Positions 1-6,696 of a DNA stretch of 6,696 bases are shown piece after piece. The number at the start of each line of letters is the position of its first letter. Within the stretch, counting starts at the first letter, position 1. Made by a program: the position numbers and the translations under genes. The notes below the pieces were generated by a model. That model had not been told where the DNA came from and made no database searches. It saw nothing but the letters and a program-made list of their open reading frames with translations. The stretch is from a virus (Duplodnaviria > Heunggongvirae > Uroviricota > Caudoviricetes), in the IMG/VR virus record IMGVR_UViG_2606217117_000014; one strand, written 5' to 3'.

Positions 1-1
1 C

Positions 2-352
2 CCGCCACAGGAAGAGACGGTGGTCAGCATTGCCGTTGATCCTGAGTCTCCGGAATCTTTCATGAAACGACCTAAACGTCGCCGCTGGGTTAACGAGAAA
101 TACACACGCTGGGTGAAGACACAGCCGTGTGCGTGTTGTGGTAAGCCAGCCGACGATCCCCATCACCTGATTGGTCATGGTCAGGGCGGAATGGGGACAA
201 AATCTCACGATATTTTCACGCTACCGCTGTGTCGGGAGCATCACAACGAGCTTCATGCGGATCCTCTGGCGTTCGAAGAAAAGCATGGTTCTCAGGTTGA
301 TTTAATTTTTCGTTTTCTTGATCACGCCTTTGCAACTGGCGTGCTTGGGTAA
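2..352 (+). CDS. NinG/DUF968-like prophage protein with Cys/His-rich HNH-type motif; C-terminal fragment, 5' end lies outside the window
   Basis: Frame is open from window start to TAA at 350-352. Translation carries CACCGK...HHLIGH...HD...CREHHNELH, a zinc-binding HNH-like pattern. Sits immediately upstream of rusA as in lambdoid nin regions. Family assignment is from memory, not a search. Confidence 0.55.
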   Translation, partial: PPQEETVVSIAVDPESPESFMKRPKRRRWVNEKYTRWVKTQPCACCGKPADDPHHLIGHGQGGMGTKSHDIFTLPLCREHHNELHADPLAFEEKHGSQVDLIFRFLDHAFATGVLG

Positions 353-364
353 AAGAGGTGACTG

Positions 365-739
365 ATGCTCATAGATTTGGTTTTACCTTACCCGCCGACG
401 GTGAACACTTACTGGCGACGCCGTGGCAGCACATATTTTATCTCGGAGGAGGGAAAGCGTTATCGCCGGGCTGTGGCGCTTATTGTTCGCCAGCAGCGGC
501 TGAAATTAAGCCTGTCCGGAAGGCTGGCGATAAAGGTGATTGCAGAGCCACCGGATAAGCGTCGTCGCGACCTGGACAATATCCTGAAAGCACCGCTGGA
601 TGCGCTGACGCATGCGGGAGTGTTAATGGACGATGAGCAGTTTGATGAAATCAATATCGTTCGTGGTCAGCCAGTATCTGGTGGACGTCTGGGGGTGAAG
701 ATTTACCCCATAATGCATGAAGAGCAGGTCAAAAAATGA
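365..739 (+). CDS. rusA: RusA-family Holliday junction resolvase (lambdoid prophage endodeoxyribonuclease)
   Basis: 124 aa. Contains PPDKRRRDLDNILKAPLDALTHAG, matching the recalled RusA catalytic block (DRRRRDLDN...FDALT). N-terminal LPYPPTVNTYW parallels RusA LPWPPSNNRYY. SD-like AGAGGTGA lies 5-6 nt before the ATG. Confidence 0.85.
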   Translation: MLIDLVLPYPPTVNTYWRRRGSTYFISEEGKRYRRAVALIVRQQRLKLSLSGRLAIKVIAEPPDKRRRDLDNILKAPLDALTHAGVLMDDEQFDEINIVRGQPVSGGRLGVKIYPIMHEEQVKK

Positions 740-1557
740 AACTGGAAGATTTACCGAAATACTACTCCCCAAAATCCCCTGGCCTGACCGATGCATCGGC
801 CTCAACGTCAAAAGATGCGCTGAGTATCACTGATGTGATGGCCGCGCAGGGCATGACACAGAATCGGGCTGAGATGGGTTTTTCTGCGTTCCTGGGGAAA
901 ATGGGCATCAGTATGAATGACAGGGTGCGGGCAACAGAATTACTGGCAGATTATGCACTCAGTCGGTGCGATCGTGTGGCGGCGTTGAGAAAACTTCCGG
1001 CAGAAATAAAACCGGTAGTGATGCGCATTATGGCTTCGTACGCTTTTGAGGATTATGCCCGCAGCGCAGCGAGTAAAAAGCAGTGCCCTTGTTGCTATGG
1101 GGAAAAATTTATTGAAAGCATAGTTTTTACAAACAAGGTCCAGTATCCGGATGGTAAGCCGCCGGTATGGGCAAAGTGTACGAAAGGTGTGTATCCGTCT
1201 TACTGGGAAGAATGGAAAAAAGTCAGGGAGGTGGTAAAAGTTGCCTGTCCGGAGTGTGGCGGAAAGGGTGAGGTTTCCACCGCCTGTAAGGATTGCCGTG
1301 GGCGTGGTGTCGCCATTCACCGTGAAGAGTCGGTAAAACGTGGTATGCCTGTTATCAGAGACTGCCAGCGTTGTGGTGGTCGTGGCTATGAAAGACTACC
1401 ATCAACGGAGGCATTTAATGCTATATGCGAGGTGACAAACCAGATAACACGCGCGTCATGGGAAAAAACAGTTAAGAAATTCTATGATGCGCTGGTGACC
1501 CGGTTTGATATTGAAGAAGCATGGGCTGAGCGGCAGTTAAAAAAGGTAACTAGGTAA
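736..1557 (+). CDS. Late-gene antitermination protein Q (QuuQ/Q-like) with DnaJ-type CxxCxGxG zinc-finger repeats
   Basis: 273 aa. Start ATG overlaps the rusA stop (ATGA at 736-739). Lies directly upstream of a lambda-like pR'/tR' pair. N-terminus MKLEDLPKYYSPKSP resembles recalled Qin QuuQ. Three repeats CPECGGKG, CKDCRGRG, CQRCGGRG. Confidence 0.75.
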   Translation: MKLEDLPKYYSPKSPGLTDASASTSKDALSITDVMAAQGMTQNRAEMGFSAFLGKMGISMNDRVRATELLADYALSRCDRVAALRKLPAEIKPVVMRIMASYAFEDYARSAASKKQCPCCYGEKFIESIVFTNKVQYPDGKPPVWAKCTKGVYPSYWEEWKKVREVVKVACPECGGKGEVSTACKDCRGRGVAIHREESVKRGMPVIRDCQRCGGRGYERLPSTEAFNAICEVTNQITRASWEKTVKKFYDALVTRFDIEEAWAERQLKKVTR

Positions 1558-1562
1558 CAAGG

Positions 1563-1604
1563 TTGATTTTTCCGGAATCTGTGGTAAATTCGTCATAACG
1601 ATGG
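1563..1604 (+). promoter_or_regulatory. pR'-like late promoter with Q-dependent pause element
   Basis: -35 TTGATT (1563-1568), 16-nt spacer, -10 TAAATT (1585-1590). Six nt later AACGATGGG (1596-1604), the same arrangement as recalled lambda pR' (TAAATT-TGACTC-AACGATGGG). Confidence 0.6.
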
Positions 1605-1638
1605 GCCTTTTATGCCTGACGTTAGAAGAGTTTCTACA

Positions 1639-1664
1639 ACCCGCCGCCGAGCGGGTTTTTTATT
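1639..1664 (+). terminator. tR'-like intrinsic terminator
   Basis: Stem ACCCGC (1639-1644) pairs with GCGGGT (1651-1656), 6-nt loop, then TTTTTTATT. About 65 nt downstream of the predicted pR' start. Confidence 0.65.
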
Positions 1665-1691
1665 GCGGAATTAATTACGGACCGTTATTAT
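1663..1691 (+). promoter_or_regulatory. Candidate sigma70 promoter for the tRNA genes
   Basis: TTGCGG (1663-1668), 17-nt spacer, TATTAT (1686-1691). Predicted start falls about 7-9 nt before the tRNA 5' end. Motif match only. Confidence 0.3.
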
Positions 1692-1700
1692 TCTGCTCCC

Positions 1701-1776
1701 GGCCCTTTAGCTCAGTGGTGAGAGCGAGCGACTCATAATCGCCAGGTCGCTGGTTCAAATCCAGCAAGGGCCACCA
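1701..1776 (+). tRNA. tRNA-Ile2 (anticodon CAU, lysidine-type; tRNA-Met not excluded), ileZ-like as in Stx phages
   Basis: Hand-folded cloverleaf: acceptor GGCCCTT/AAGGGCC, D stem GCTC/GAGC, anticodon loop CTCATAA, T arm GCTGG-TTCAAAT-CCAGC, discriminator A, encoded CCA. Close to recalled E. coli ileX. Confidence 0.85.
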
Positions 1777-1876
1777 TCACAAACCGCCATTAGCTTATCA
1801 GGAAGAGCAGACGACGCGATAACAGGGTTGTTGGTGCGGGGGCGGGTCCCCGATGGCGGTCCATTATCGGTATTCA

Positions 1877-1950
1877 GCGTTGTTAGCTCAGCCGGACAGA
1901 GCAATTGCCTTCTAAGCAATCGGTCACTGGTTCGAATCCAGTACAGCGCG
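1877..1950 (+). tRNA. tRNA-Arg (anticodon UCU, reads AGA/AGG), argN/argO-like
   Basis: Acceptor GCGTTGT/ACAGCGC (one G-U pair), D stem GCTC/GAGC, anticodon stem ATTGC/GCAAT with loop CTTCTAA, T arm ACTGG-TTCGAAT-CCAGT, discriminator G. No encoded CCA. Confidence 0.8.
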
Positions 1951-2090
1951 CTATATTCATTCTTCCAGATTCCTTCCGGCAGAGCCTTATACTGAAATAT
2001 ACCTGGCTCAGGATATTGTTGAAAATATTATATGTTTGTCAAAAATAAAAGTTCTGTTAAGTATTGATTGAGTGTTTGTTATACGGTCTA

Positions 2091-2417
2091 ATGGTTTTTT
2101 CAGCATTAAATATTTATCATTCATATGGTGTGGGTAGAGTGAATATTGATGAGGCGTCGGGGTGTTTCATCCTTAGGCAGCGTATTGATATAGTCAATGC
2201 AGCACGAGCAAAGGCCTTCAGCCGTTTGACAGTTTTGTTCTGTACTCCTGATCGTCTTTCGGGAAGAGACGTTATTATTCTGAATAGTGATGCTATTCAG
2301 AGGGTTTGCGATGAGTTCATGGTTGCTAATTCAGAATTATTTGCTCTTGTTCAGGAGTACAACAGAATAGCCAGGACCTGTGGTATGGATGAACTTCGGA
2401 TTACTCATCTGGGGTAG
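2091..2417 (+). CDS. Hypothetical protein, ~108 aa from ATG 2091 (117 aa if TTG 2064 is used), unknown function
   Basis: Open frame to TAG 2415-2417. Candidate promoter TTGTCA (2036-2041), 16-17 nt spacer, TAAGTA/AAGTAT (2058-2064) just upstream. No convincing SD. Occupies the position of stx genes in Stx phages. No recognisable motif. Confidence 0.4.
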   Translation: MVFSALNIYHSYGVGRVNIDEASGCFILRQRIDIVNAARAKAFSRLTVLFCTPDRLSGRDVIILNSDAIQRVCDEFMVANSELFALVQEYNRIARTCGMDELRITHLG

Positions 2418-2497
2418 ATACATATCTGGATTATCACTTGTTACGGTAAAAAGTGATTGCTTACTGTTTTTGTGAGTGGCATTGCAGCAGCCGGATA

Positions 2498-2584
2498 ATG
2501 TCAGTGCTGGCTGACGGTGTGCTGGTGGCGGGTGTGGTGGTTGTTGCTTTCCCGTTGCTGAAAAAGAAAACGCCAGACTGTTAG
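2498..2584 (+). CDS. Candidate small hydrophobic peptide, 28 aa (MSVLADGVLVAGVVVVAFPLLKKKTPDC)
   Basis: ATG 2498 to TAG 2582-2584. One predicted transmembrane-like segment followed by KKK. Weak SD (GGA about 5 nt upstream). Could be a chance ORF in GT-rich DNA. Confidence 0.2.
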   Translation: MSVLADGVLVAGVVVVAFPLLKKKTPDC

Positions 2585-2808
2585 CCGGGTATCAGTTAGC
2601 GGGAGAAATTTTTAAATACTTCACAATTCAGGCGGTTGACTGTTGTCTGGTTTGCGGGGAGTTTGTTAAAAGAAACTGGCATGGTGAATCCCCCTGTGCG
2701 GAGGGGCAATCAGCGAGTAGGTATATGGGATAATCGCGGATTCAGGTGCTGGTACTGAATTCACCGGGAGGCACCCGGCACCATGCAATGGCACATAGCG
2801 CCACTCTC

Positions 2809-2838
2809 CAGCCCCTCTCCGGAGGGGCTGTTTATATT
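2809..2838 (+). terminator. Rho-independent terminator, plus-strand orientation
   Basis: 9-bp GC-rich stem CAGCCCCTC (2809-2817) / GAGGGGCTG (2822-2830), 4-nt loop, followed by TTTATATTGATTTT. The reverse-strand flank is not U-rich. Confidence 0.6.
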
Positions 2839-2861
2839 GATTTTGTCAGATGTGAGTAAAC

Positions 2862-2895
2862 TCCTTATGGACTTTGTTGTTTTAGTCCATAAGGA
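2862..2895. repeat. Perfect 12-bp inverted repeat with 10-bp spacer (TCCTTATGGACT-N10-AGTCCATAAGGA)
   Basis: Read directly from the sequence. Overlaps the last about 10 codons and the stop of the minus-strand gene 2865-3200. Confidence 0.75.
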
Positions 2896-3200
2896 CATAT
2901 TTGCAGAGTGCAACGGTTATTAAAGCATTCATTCAATACGTTATCTGTATTTGTAGGACATTCCTGGCTGTTTTTGATTAAATTCCAGAATGTTTTATTG
3001 AATGGTGCTACGTTGTAAATGGTTACAGGTAGCACTTTGTTATTGAGCATGATACCTGTGTGAGTCAGTGTAAATATACTTTCAGGAGGTAAGAAAGCAT
3101 CCGATTGATACCAGATTATTAATTTTATTTTACTCCATATGACTGAAAAAGATATTCCGCATGATGGCTGGATAACTGTATCAATCACAATCCACTTCAT
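2865..3200 (-). CDS. Hypothetical Cys-containing protein, 111 aa, AT-rich moron gene convergent to the late operon
   Basis: Strong SD AAGGAA 6 nt upstream of ATG (plus 3198-3200). A 111-codon open frame in DNA that looks very AT-rich by eye is unlikely by chance. Translation: [18 protein letters not shown]...[10 protein letters not shown]. No recognisable family. Confidence 0.55.
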
Positions 3201-3240
3201 TTAGTTTCCTTGTTTATGTCTTGCTGGTGATGTTCTGAAA

Positions 3241-3267
3241 AGTATAAATGATATTTTTGAATGTAAA
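3241..3267 (-). promoter_or_regulatory. Candidate sigma70 promoter for the minus-strand 111-aa gene
   Basis: Minus strand reads TTTACA (plus 3262-3267), 15-nt spacer, TATACT (plus 3241-3246), about 35 nt upstream of the RBS. Spacer is shorter than optimal. Confidence 0.3.
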
Positions 3268-3460
3268 CCATAGAGCAGAATTATTTTTCTGATGTTGTTT
3301 ATTGTTTATTTAAATGCAGGGTGGTTTATATCTCGTCTTGTAGTTTATCCATGCATATCTGCTTGATGATGAGGTTTTTATTTAAGGTATGGTTTTGTGT
3401 TTTTTCTGTATTACATGTCAGGTATTTTAAAGAATTATTTTTCAGATGGTGGAAAGAACC

Positions 3461-5422
3461 ATGGCATTTAAACACTATGATGTTGTCAGGGCGGCATCGC
3501 CGTCAGACCTTGCGAAACGACTGACACAAAAACTGAAGGAGGGGTGGCAGCCATTTGGCAGTCCGGTGGCCATCACGCCTTATACCCTGATGCAGGCCAT
3601 TGCGGCGGAAGGTGATGTCACCACACCTGTGGTGGTGAAGCCGTCGGATGGAGAAGGCGCAGTTATCAGCACCACCAGCAACCCGGAGTATTACTTTGTT
3701 GTTGCCCTGGCCGGGCAGTCAAACGGTATGGCGTATGGTGAAGGGCTTCCGCTGCCGGAGACATATGACCGTCCGGACCCGCGTATTAAACAGCTGGCGC
3801 GTCGCAGCACTGTCACGCCGGGTGGTGCGTCCTGTAACTACAATGACATTATTCCTGCGGACCACTGCCTGCATGATGTTCAGGATTTGAGTAAGTTTTC
3901 ACACCCGAAAGCCAGCGCAGCTCAGTATGGATGCGTGGGGCAGGGATTACATATCGCGAAGAAATTGTTGCCGTTTATTCCGGCGAATGCCGGTATTCTT
4001 CTGGTTCCGTGCTGCCGTGGTGGTTCTGCATTTTTGGCGGGCGATGAAGGTACCTTCAGCGAATCCACCGGCGCAAGCGAGACCTCGGCACGCTGGGGTG
4101 TTGATAAGCCACTGTACAAGGACCTGCTTACCCGTACTCAGGCCGCACTGAAGGCCAACCCTAAAAATATTCTGCTTGCAGTGGTCTGGATGCAGGGCGA
4201 GTTTGATTTGAAACAGGGTGCATACGCCACTCAGCCGGGGCTGTTTGATTCCATGGTGGAAAAATATCGTTCTGACCTGTCGGAATTCGGAGGTCAGTGT
4301 CTCGGGGGCTCTCCGTCATCGGTTCCCTGGATTTGTGGCGACACGACCTACTACTGGAAGCAGACTTATTCTTCGCAATACGATGCGGTGTATGGTGCAT
4401 ACAAGACGAAATCCGCAAAAAAAATCTTCTTTGTGCCGTTTATGACGGATGAAAACGGGCGAAATGTGGGTACCAACGAGCCGTCAGAAGATCCGGATGT
4501 TGCGGATATTGGGTATTACGGAGGCGGTGGTCGAACGGACGCCAAAACCTGGACGACGGCCGACCGTAAAACGCATTTTGGATCATGGGCACGTCGTGGG
4601 ATTATTTCCGACCGTCTGGCAACGGCGATTCTTGTGCATGCCGGGAGAAACGCTGAATTCATTACCGGAAAACAGCCTGATACGGTGAAGCCCACCGGAC
4701 CTTCCGGTGAAGGTACGGAGAGAGAGCCGGAAGCCCCGGTCAGTAACCGAACCCTGATGAGTCTGCTGGCGTCCGGCGAAGACCTGGCATCACAGGGCTG
4801 GCGCTATTATCACAAACCGGCGAGCGGAGACAATGTTAACAAAAACATTGCTGAAGCGGTGGTCAGTGATGCGGGGGCTACGGGAGGTAAGGCCCTGCAA
4901 CTGAATAAACCGGAAAACCACATCTGGTTTCTGGAGCATGATGCAGCCGGACAGGGAGTGGAGTTACTGAAGAAGGGGGGACGTGTGAGCGTACGGTTTA
5001 AGTTGCCGGGTTCACTGGTGCCGAATCAGTTTGCCCTGGGCATTTACTGGCAGTTGTCGTCCCTGCCGGAGGGAGTGACGCTGGCAGAGGAAGGCAACGA
5101 CATGCTGATGTCCTTCTTTCTGCAGACGGATGCGACGAACCTGAACGCGATGCACCACAAGAAGCCGAATGCGAAGCTGGAAACGTTCGGGGTCTTTGAT
5201 AACGGATGGCACACACTGGCTTTTGAGTTTGCCGGAAACAACAGCATTCAGGTGACGCCGGTACTGGATGAGAAACGGGGGACGCCGTTCACACTGGTGA
5301 AATCTCCGGCATCAGGGGCGGCGGACAAACTGCAACTGACAGGCATATCAAAGGCGGCGACATATACGCTGCTGATTGACAGTGTGAAGGTGGAAGTGAA
5401 CAACGCGGACATCGCGGCATGA
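3461..5422 (+). CDS. nanS: Prophage sialate O-acetylesterase, NanS-p type (N-terminal DUF1737-like region, SASA/SGNH esterase domain, C-terminal extension)
   Basis: 653 aa from ATG 3461, which has SD GGTGGA 7 nt upstream; the ATG at 3446 has no SD. Block VVALAGQSNGMAYGEG carries the GQSN serine motif of the sialate O-acetylesterase family. Size and position match recalled nanS-p genes downstream of stx. Confidence 0.8.
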   Translation: MAFKHYDVVRAASPSDLAKRLTQKLKEGWQPFGSPVAITPYTLMQAIAAEGDVTTPVVVKPSDGEGAVISTTSNPEYYFVVALAGQSNGMAYGEGLPLPETYDRPDPRIKQLARRSTVTPGGASCNYNDIIPADHCLHDVQDLSKFSHPKASAAQYGCVGQGLHIAKKLLPFIPANAGILLVPCCRGGSAFLAGDEGTFSESTGASETSARWGVDKPLYKDLLTRTQAALKANPKNILLAVVWMQGEFDLKQGAYATQPGLFDSMVEKYRSDLSEFGGQCLGGSPSSVPWICGDTTYYWKQTYSSQYDAVYGAYKTKSAKKIFFVPFMTDENGRNVGTNEPSEDPDVADIGYYGGGGRTDAKTWTTADRKTHFGSWARRGIISDRLATAILVHAGRNAEFITGKQPDTVKPTGPSGEGTEREPEAPVSNRTLMSLLASGEDLASQGWRYYHKPASGDNVNKNIAEAVVSDAGATGGKALQLNKPENHIWFLEHDAAGQGVELLKKGGRVSVRFKLPGSLVPNQFALGIYWQLSSLPEGVTLAEEGNDMLMSFFLQTDATNLNAMHHKKPNAKLETFGVFDNGWHTLAFEFAGNNSIQVTPVLDEKRGTPFTLVKSPASGAADKLQLTGISKAATYTLLIDSVKVEVNNADIAA

Positions 5423-5423
5423 T

Positions 5424-5460
5424 AAAAAAAGCCGCCAGCGGCAGGAATGGAAGCTGGCGG
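5424..5460 (-). terminator. Hairpin with A-tract on its plus-strand 5' side; oriented as an intrinsic terminator for leftward transcription
   Basis: AAAAAAA (5424-5430), stem CCGCCAGC (5432-5439) / GCTGGCGG (5453-5460), 13-nt loop. No T-tract follows on the plus strand. Loop is large, so moderate-low confidence. Confidence 0.35.
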
Positions 5461-5558
5461 AGGTAATCCCAATGGAGAATGTAAAGAAAAGATGCTTTCG
5501 ACATCAATCATTTCTAAATGAAAACAGTTCTCATTGTCAACCATAACGGTAAGAAATT

Positions 5559-5741
5559 ATGACATTTATTCATCAGGTAATGCTGTACTTCTGTATGGCA
5601 GTCTGTGTTATGTATCTTCTTTCGGGTGGGTACAGGGCAGTGCGCGATTTCTGGCGCAGGCAGATTGATAAAAGGGCCGCTGAGAGAATCAGCGCCAGTC
5701 AGTCAGCCGGAAGCAAACCCGAAGATCCGCTCATTCCGTAG
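5559..5741 (+). CDS. Hypothetical small membrane protein, 60 aa
   Basis: ATG 5559. One hydrophobic segment (IHQVMLYFCMAVCVMYLLSGGY) followed by a basic/charged tail. Weak SD. An overlapping alternative frame from 5605 is also open, so the call is uncertain. Confidence 0.3.
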   Translation: MTFIHQVMLYFCMAVCVMYLLSGGYRAVRDFWRRQIDKRAAERISASQSAGSKPEDPLIP

Positions 5742-5778
5742 TCACTTTCTTGACAACACCTTTCAACGAGAAAATCCC

Positions 5779-5827
5779 ATGTCAGAAATCACATCCCTGG
5801 TCACTGCTGAGGCAGTGAAGGAAGTCC
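5779..5827 (+). pseudogene. 5' fragment (16 codons, MSEITSLVTAEAVKEV) of a gene interrupted by the IS insertion
   Basis: ATG 5779 in an open frame that runs straight into the IS terminus at 5828. The ORF-track continuation past 5828 is IS sequence read in the wrong context. Confidence 0.25.
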
Positions 5828-6696
5828 TGAACCGCCCCGGGTTTCCTGGAGAGTATTTTATCTGTGAACTCAGGCTGCCAGATCATCGTTTCCGATGGAA
5901 GCATAATAAGCTTTTTCTGCTTCTGCCGGAGGAGTATGGCCCAGCCTTTCCAGCAATCGTCGATTGTTATACCAGTCCACCCACGTGAGTGTGGCCAGTT
6001 CCACTTCTGCACGGTTTTTCCAGCTCTTACGGTGTATTACCTCCGCTTTGTAAAGACCATTGATGCTCTCCGCCATCGCGTTGTCATACGAGTCGCCTGT
6101 ACTTCCTGTTGATGCCAGTAATCCGGCTTCCTTAAGCCGCTGTGTGTAGGCCAGCGATACATACTGAGAACCTTTATCACTGTGATGGACCGTGCCGGAC
6201 GGTCGACGGGCCCATAACGCCTGCTCCAGTGCATCCAGCACGAATGTCGTCTCCATGGACGATGAGACCCGCCACCCCACAATGTATCCGGCAAACACAT
6301 CAATGATGAACGCCACATAGACGAAGCCCTGCCATGTGCTGACGTAAGTAAAATCAGCCACCCACAGCTGGTCAGGTCGTTCTGCCACGAACTGACGGTT
6401 TACGCGGTCGCCTGCGGCAACGGCTTTCCGGCTGATGGTCGTACGGACCTTTTTACCCCGGAGAACACCGGCAAGTCCCATAACCGCCATGAGACGTGCC
6501 ACAGTGCATCTGGCCACTCTGATACCTTCCCGTAACAACTGACGCCAGACTTTACGCACACCGTATACCTTGTGATTTTCATCGTATACGCGCTGTATCT
6601 CTTTCTTCAGCCAGTCATCGCGCTGCGCACGGGCACTGCGTTTATCCGGATGATGTCGCTGTTGCTGACAGTGGTAATACGTTGACGGGGCAATAT
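5828..6696 (-). mobile_element. IS3-family insertion sequence (IS629-like), partial; runs off the right edge of the window
   Basis: Terminus TGAACCGCCCCGGGTTTCCTGGAGAG at 5828 matches the recalled IS629/IS3-family terminal inverted repeat. Encloses a DDE transposase OrfB on the minus strand ending 42 bp inside the end. Confidence 0.8.
5870..6696 (-). CDS. IS3-family transposase OrfB (DDE integrase core), N-terminal part outside the window
   Basis: Frame is open from the window edge (hand translation 6560-6696 has no stop) to TGA at plus 5870-5872. Motifs WVADFTYV, HHSDKGSQY, DSYDNAMAES, YKAE are typical DDE transposase blocks. Confidence 0.85.
   Translation of the reverse strand, partial: IAPSTYYHCQQQRHHPDKRSARAQRDDWLKKEIQRVYDENHKVYGVRKVWRQLLREGIRVARCTVARLMAVMGLAGVLRGKKVRTTISRKAVAAGDRVNRQFVAERPDQLWVADFTYVSTWQGFVYVAFIIDVFAGYIVGWRVSSSMETTFVLDALEQALWARRPSGTVHHSDKGSQYVSLAYTQRLKEAGLLASTGSTGDSYDNAMAESINGLYKAEVIHRKSWKNRAEVELATLTWVDWYNNRRLLERLGHTPPAEAEKAYYASIGNDDLAA

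Follow-up and report, generated by a model that had tools for sequence, protein, structure and literature searches.

An IS629-group insertion sequence within a DUF826 gene in the late region of a lambdoid prophage

Introduction

When an insertion sequence (IS) settles in a prophage a short way ahead of the genes for holin and endolysin, does it sever lysis from its regulator, or is the damage confined to the gene that it breaks? The question is raised by the window analysed here, that is, the whole 6,696-nt stretch of DNA. It corresponds to one entire contig of the draft assembly GCA_000704145.1, JNQN01000104.1 (6696 bp; our locus L041 is identical to it), and in its last part a short reading frame runs into an IS that fills the sequence to its end. 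An answer requires that we know which gene was broken, by what element, what follows in related prophages, and how transcription reaches the lysis genes.

The prophage region and its relatives

The window covers the part of a lambdoid prophage that holds its late regulation and its accessory genes, in the order Q, tRNAs, DUF3927, STnc100 sRNA, iraM, nanS-p, DUF1378 and DUF826, continued in relatives by holin, lysozyme and Rz. It opens on the 3' end of a DUF968 gene (1-352; PF06147) and on rusA (365-739; PF05866), followed on the plus strand by the gene of the late-gene antiterminator Q (736-1557; PF03589, 182 bits). A putative late promoter, TTGATT-17 nt-TAAATT, can be read behind Q at 1563-1597 and makes up, with a plus-strand terminator hairpin located by a terminator scan (1638-1657), the segment 1563-1657. 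Two tRNA genes come next, the first on the plus strand with anticodon CAT (1701-1776; ARAGORN), the second, found by the tRNA scan, a tRNA-Arg (TCT) at 1877-1951. The former is a tRNA-Met according to ARAGORN, but in complete genomes PGAP annotates the identical gene as a tRNA-Ile, the ileZ type that Stx-like phages typically carry.

The place that stx would occupy (1952-3445) holds other genes. A DUF3927 reading frame (2453-2584; PF13064, and so named by PGAP) precedes a full-length match to the STnc100 sRNA on the plus strand (2650-2839; Rfam RF02076, 132 bits for a gathering score of 47), which ends in a strong plus-strand terminator with a 9-bp stem (2809-2830; terminator scan). This match thus sits between the DUF3927 frame and an iraM homologue, in the very slot of stx in Stx phages. 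The iraM homologue (2865-3200, minus strand; 111 aa, anti-adapter IraM by NCBIfam NF007393, 162 bits) is prophage cargo that runs against the direction of the late operon; the Pfam scan returned nothing for it at E<=0.01, and a public collection gives PmrD (PF11183) for the identical protein. As stx is annotated in none of the identical regions, the prophage does not belong with the Stx-converting phages. The Stx-type frame in which a first-pass annotation had placed the locus holds for the layout, which is Stx-like, but not for the cargo, since stx is missing and the iraM homologue and the sRNA stand in its slot.

Further along the plus strand, nanS-p (3461-5422, with an alternative start at 3446) is intact and codes for a SASA-family esterase with DUF1737 and DUF6645, as seen from Pfam and from the PGAP names of identical genes. 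DUF1378 (5559-5741, plus strand; PF07125, 121 bits), intact as well, lies immediately upstream of DUF826.

This organization has close counterparts. A prophage of Escherichia coli strain 3059 (NZ_CP103559.1) matches positions 1-5038 at 99.98% identity and positions 5036-5829 at 100%. The segment 2000-5827 is 100% identical to prophages in 12 complete genomes, and at least 80% of this segment is present in 172 of 5426 complete E. coli genomes; the IS-free prophages of SCU-484 and LC-1302-2020 are 100% identical over it. In the IS-free prophages that are near-identical to the window (99.98-100% over 1-5827), DUF826 is an intact gene of 81 codons; a class II holin gene begins 76 nt past its end, with DUF1327/YdfR, lysozyme, Rz, terminase and portal behind it. 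The arrangement recurs, with DUF826 intact and holin in place, in all ten public contigs shown for the 653-aa NanS-p allele of the window; looking up the 658-aa reading of NanS-p returned one Logan contig, again with intact DUF826. The lysis cassette that had been anticipated downstream is thus where it was expected, and from the IS-free relatives the holin ATG should lie 273 nt past the insertion point. Together, Q and its terminator at 1638-1657 in the window, and holin, lysozyme, Rz and terminase outside it, as given by the relatives, make up a Q-dependent late operon.

The relatives display some variation of their own. Between holin and lysozyme, DUF1327/YdfR is a truncated pseudogene in strains 3059 and LC-1302-2020 (L001 10596-10931; L014 13322-13657), and a full 296-aa reading frame in other sister prophages, such as L015 and L016. 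The lysis region of this prophage lineage is itself polymorphic.

The junction and the element

The interrupted frame begins with the ATG at 5779-5781 and proceeds through 16 codons, MSEITSLVTAEAVKEV, over 5779-5826. Its DNA is 100% identical to that of the intact DUF826 gene of the sister prophage (L001 10054-10299) up to 5829, and the first base of the IS is 5828, with the terminus TGAACCGCCCCGGG and IS-derived sequence from there through to 6696. The overlap comes from the first bases of the element, TG (5828-5829), which coincide with the native ones, so that codon 17 (CTG, Leu) is regenerated at the very place where the native gene reads on as ...GTC CTG CGC TCT GAA.... With the sister gene as reference, the breakpoint falls between 5827 and 5828, within codon 17, and what remains of the gene on the plus strand is its 5' end, 16 codons and the first base of the next (5779-5827). 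The intact gene carries a 9-bp direct repeat, GAAGTCCTG, present twice within 27 bp (L001 10095-10103 and 10113-10121), and the IS of the window sits inside the first copy (window-equivalent 5820-5828).

Past the break, the list of reading frames and their translation reveal a chimeric plus-strand frame of 69 codons (5779-5988, stop codon 5986-5988), composed of residues 1-17 of DUF826 and 52 residues from the antisense strand of the IS. Its product, presumed to be non-functional, has no record in the public collection under exact look-up.

The element itself can be identified with precision. Positions 5828-6696, on the minus strand, correspond to nucleotides 1-869 of a 1310-bp IS of the IS3 family, IS629/IS1203 group, counted from the right inverted-repeat end, and are identical at 869 of 869 positions to many full 1310-bp copies in E. 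coli chromosomes and plasmids (for instance L004 1501-2810). Over the same 869 nt, identity is 99.3% to the copy of strain 3059 and 95.7% to the IS629/IS1203 of prophage Sp5 of O157 Sakai. ISfinder practice places elements in one isoform when they share at least about 95% of their nucleotides; membership in the IS629/IS1203 group is borderline at 95.7%, the reference being the copy annotated in Sakai.

The end visible in the window opens with TGAACCGCC at 5828, the extended start of the element being TGAACCGCCCCGGGTTTCCTGGAGAG, and the terminal inverted repeat, downstream of orfB, covers 5828-5854 (5'-TGAACCGCCCCGGG). In full copies that are identical over the 869 nt, the two ends agree at 24 of the first 27 positions and share all of the first 14. 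The far end of these copies reads ...GGGGCGGTTCA; they finish ...CCCGGGGCGGTTCA, with GGTTCA as terminal bases.

Beyond the repeat lies orfB, on the minus strand (5870-6696), of which the window holds the C-terminal 274 codons, translated without an in-frame stop, and the stop codon. The product is a DDE transposase: Pfam recognizes rve (98 bits), HTH_21 and rve_3, and the IS3-specific NCBIfam model NF033516 scores 296 bits for a cut-off of 160. The N-terminus of orfB, orfA and the frameshift site fall beyond the contig end, the window stopping at IS nucleotide 869, barely within the pseudoknot annotated for the frameshift (IS nucleotides 859-975). In the identical full copies PGAP annotates a programmed frameshift, with the product named 'IS3 family transposase'. 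The transposase gene of the window runs antisense to the phage late operon.

The interruption of this reading frame by an IS3-family element is real, and far beyond what chance would produce. The anatomy put forward by the first-pass annotation is therefore sound: identity with the sister gene and the IS edge at 5828 bear out a frame that is cut after 16 codons by an IS terminus, the broken gene, now identified as DUF826, does lie downstream of nanS-p, past DUF1378, and NF033516, the rve, HTH_21 and rve_3 matches and the identical 1310-bp copies all support the assignment of the element to the IS3 family.

The end of the contig and the form of the event

The window stops within the element. 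At least nine further contigs of GCA_000704145.1, and one (L031) of GCA_000615145.1, also end at IS nucleotide 869 (loci L025-L034), and the source genome carries at least ten copies of the IS. Because many contigs of the same assembly stop at this one IS coordinate, the end at 6696 is an assembler break in a multi-copy IS. It follows that another contig must carry the far end of the element, together with the target duplication and the rest of DUF826. The 869 nt are the same in all contigs of the assembly and may represent a repeat consensus rather than a copy-specific sequence, so that the intactness read here may not be that of this particular copy.

What kind of event, then, created the junction? 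Full copies of the IS offer a guide. Twelve of them, sampled from different genomes and loci, all measure 1310 bp, and 11 are flanked by 3-4 bp direct duplications, while one has no target duplication. Since 11 of 12 are simple insertions, a simple insertion is the most likely event in the window as well, probably with duplication of TCC (or GTCC); by analogy with these 11 copies, the predicted left copy of the duplication is the TCC at 5825-5827 (GTCC if 4 bp). The 1310-bp element would have transposed into codon 17 of DUF826 within the Q-dependent late operon of a lambdoid prophage without stx, and the other 441 nt of the IS, the 3-bp TCC duplication, the remainder of DUF826 and the lysis cassette would be found on another contig of the same assembly. 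That contig should show the left end of the IS, ...GGGGCGGTTCA, then TCC or GTCC, then TGCGCTCTGAAGAAG and the holin gene; after TCC, DUF826 would continue as TGCGCTCTGAAG..., its 3' part being recognizable by the string TGCGCTCTGAAGAAGTCCTG, and the holin gene would begin ATGTACCAGATGGAAAAAATC.... None of the 111 DUF826 homologues on record is the expected downstream fragment.

A different reading makes the junction one edge of an IS-mediated rearrangement, be it an adjacent deletion, an inversion or a recombination between copies. The rest of DUF826 and the genes for lysis and morphogenesis would then be missing or located elsewhere, and the prophage would be a remnant. The ten or more contig ends that lie in the IS within the source assembly are compatible with this reading, ten or more copies in one genome favour recombination between them, and one sampled copy in twelve has no target duplication. 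Moreover, gapped searches for the right, partner junction in GTDB species representatives, JGI metagenomes and IMG/VR gave no match; those collections, however, exclude the other contigs of GCA_000704145.1, and their silence has no weight. Shuffling around DUF826 does happen: one public hybrid protein (P0084) joins the DUF826 C-terminus to a minus-strand reading frame from the spacer between nanS-p and DUF1378, another (P0088) joins it to the N-terminus of holin, so that small rearrangements of this sort do occur in other genomes. Against all this stand the predominance of simple insertions among the sampled copies and the fact that the whole upstream region is collinear with intact prophages at 99.98-100% identity. 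We regard a rearrangement as unlikely.

Finally, one might suspect a chimeric join made by the assembler, with no real insertion at this place. The assembly is a draft of the 2014 era in which the IS was treated in a stereotyped way, contigs being all cut at IS nucleotide 869, and in the public data searched the junction occurs nowhere else: an exact search for the left junction between DUF826 and the IS found no match in the same three collections, and no alignment of a 181-nt left-junction probe spans it in a megablast comparison with 5426 complete E. coli genomes. Yet the terminal repeat of the IS begins precisely at the join, with a microhomology of just 2 nt, which is the signature of transposition and not of a k-mer mis-join. 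Furthermore, independent insertions of the same IS group exist in other DUF826 alleles. L046 (GCA_036605105.1) and the metagenome scaffold L045 both have the element in the 5' half of the gene and in the same orientation as in the window; they differ from it by their DUF826 alleles and by the site, 8 nt deeper into the gene in L046, where the gene resumes at nucleotide 58 (codon 20; L046 1-252), and 67 nt deeper in L045, where the IS follows nucleotide 116 (L045 2003-2171), compared with nucleotide 49 in the window. An artefact is hardly credible in the face of this. The exact insertion site, absent from the collections searched, is a private polymorphism and not a new kind of event.

The broken gene

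Intact DUF826 of the sister prophage is a member of its Pfam family (PF05696, 149 bits for a cut-off of 25). The remnant of the window fused to IS sequence aligns with just positions 1-18 of that profile at 21 bits, below the cut-off, as a truncated gene should. Comparison of DUF826 homologues reveals 32 invariant positions, all within residues 1-51, ahead of a variable, acidic and proline-rich tail, and AlphaFold predicts a single helix over residues 3-50 (pLDDT 85-95) followed by a disordered acidic tail. The insertion removes residues 18-81, almost all of the conserved helix, and since nearly all of the conserved part is lost, the allele is null.

The 111 homologues of DUF826 come from Escherichia or Shigella wherever the source names an organism; PHROGs has only families 311 and 8301, both of 'unknown function', and sequence searches of NCBIfam and of the PDB returned no match. 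DUF826 is mentioned in one paper only, which lists it among the phage genes as an unknown reading frame located between nanS-p and S (PMC10462455). Some phage records label it 'head completion protein', a name that we discarded as it finds no backing in PHROGs or in Pfam. A role of DUF826 in lysis is conceivable.

Transcription toward the lysis genes

We can now return to the initial question. Had the IS acted as a polar block, it would have split holin and endolysin from Q-dependent transcription, leaving a lysis-defective, domesticated prophage that still expresses iraM and nanS-p. Several features of the locus are in line with this reading. The IS lies 273 nt upstream of the expected holin ATG, it lengthens the transcript, past the chimeric stop at 5988, by about 1.1 kb of untranslated antisense sequence, it has one weak terminator-like hairpin on the plus strand (5837-5849), and a promoter scan found neither in the IS nor downstream of DUF826 any promoter-like site able to drive holin independently. 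For the same reason, an outward IS promoter directed toward the holin gene was rejected as a candidate. IS3-family elements carry an outward -35 in their right inverted repeat, which would point here away from the lysis genes.

The operon itself, however, already confronts the polymerase with stronger obstacles. Two strong native plus-strand terminators, at 1638-1657 and 2809-2830, stand between Q and the holin gene, upstream of nanS-p; expression of the lysis genes therefore already needs a Q-modified, terminator-resistant polymerase. The resistance conferred by the Q proteins of lambda, 82 and 21 extends over many kilobases and holds at intrinsic and at Rho-dependent terminators alike. By comparison, the plus strand of the full IS has a single hairpin with a weak 5-bp stem, the one at 5837-5849 inside the inverted repeat, and its terminator-like sites are no commoner than in shuffled sequence.

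Natural cases argue in the same direction. In Sp5 of Sakai, an IS629 in the same orientation lies in nanS-p, upstream of S, R and Rz (L002 6001-7310), an insertion ahead of the lysis region that was noted by Asadulghani et al. (PMC2669165). This prophage is nevertheless fully inducible and transferable: mitomycin C raises its circular DNA about 300-fold, particles form in abundance, and the phage passes efficiently to K-12, where it establishes lysogens (PMC2669165). The sister prophage of strain 3059 is a second case, with the same IS (99.3% identity) in the same orientation. It differs from the window in that the IS is in nanS-p, 790 bp upstream, at window-equivalent 5036-5038, flanked by a CTG duplication and leaving DUF826 intact (L001 8001-9310). 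This was an independent insertion event.

A polar block is thus an improbable account of the window. The first-pass annotation had suggested that the IS uncouples lysis from Q, a view that receives no support from the operon's own terminators, from the weak IS hairpin or from the activity of Sp5 with its IS629 in the same orientation; its suggestion of a defective or domesticated prophage is not supported either, the insertion having broken DUF826 and no gene for lysis. Upon induction, the Q-modified RNA polymerase would pass the IS as it passes the terminators of the operon, holin and endolysin would stay expressed, perhaps somewhat less, and the chief effect would be the loss of the accessory DUF826. 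Some drop in downstream expression is conceivable, and it seems unlikely, from this analysis of the operon, that the insertion alone disables lysis. Taken as a whole, a simple IS insertion in DUF826, with read-through that keeps the lysis genes expressed, is probably the right explanation.

Recurrence and comparison with known systems

IS629-group elements have entered the stretch from nanS-p to DUF826 independently at least in the five instances that we came across: the window, L045, L046, strain 3059 and Sp5 of Sakai. The transposase gene is antisense to late transcription in all five, a bias that is suggestive but not significant (n=5, two-sided p ~0.06), and elsewhere in such phages the orientation of IS629 is reported to vary (PMC4587872). 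It is tempting to imagine that such recurrent antisense insertions are selected and not merely tolerated, either because loss of DUF826, as a lysis-timing or late-gene factor, benefits the lysogen, or because the IS dampens read-through into lysis, a form of partial domestication. We hold this to be a long shot. The window is one more private IS629-group site in the late region of a lambdoid prophage, in line with the description of IS629 as a main driver of diversity in such phages, and an IS at the DUF826 position should not, short of induction data, be taken as the sign of a defective prophage.

The element and the event can both be set beside well-described references. When compared with the IS629/IS1203 of Sakai, of which the window allows one end and just 869 nt to be matched, the IS has a terminus that agrees over 13 nt, TGAACCGCCCCGG, with Sakai deviating at IS nucleotide 14, and an orfB that is about 97% identical. 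The full copies of the window variant are 1310 bp long; they contain orfA and orfB with a programmed frameshift, and their target duplications measure 3-4 bp. They are set apart from the Sakai element by 37 substitutions in the 869 nt, and by their wide distribution in chromosomes and plasmids of non-O157 E. coli.

As for the event, Stx2a phages commonly differ from one another by IS629/IS1203 insertions between Q and S (PMC4587872; PMC10462455). Sp5 (VT2-Sakai) and the PST1-1 phages share with the window an IS of the same group, with its transposase gene antisense to the late operon (PMC4587872; PMC10462455), in the same operon segment, between Q or the cargo and holin. In Sp5 the IS lies about 650 bp upstream of the site of the window, inside nanS-p, and the prophage carries stx2; Sp5 is also experimentally active, whereas the prophage of the window is known here from its sequence alone. 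With these differences kept in mind, the event described here is an ordinary one, of an already known kind, the same as the insertion of Sp5 and as the cases found in the stx2a phage sequence types, or PSTs (PMC4587872).
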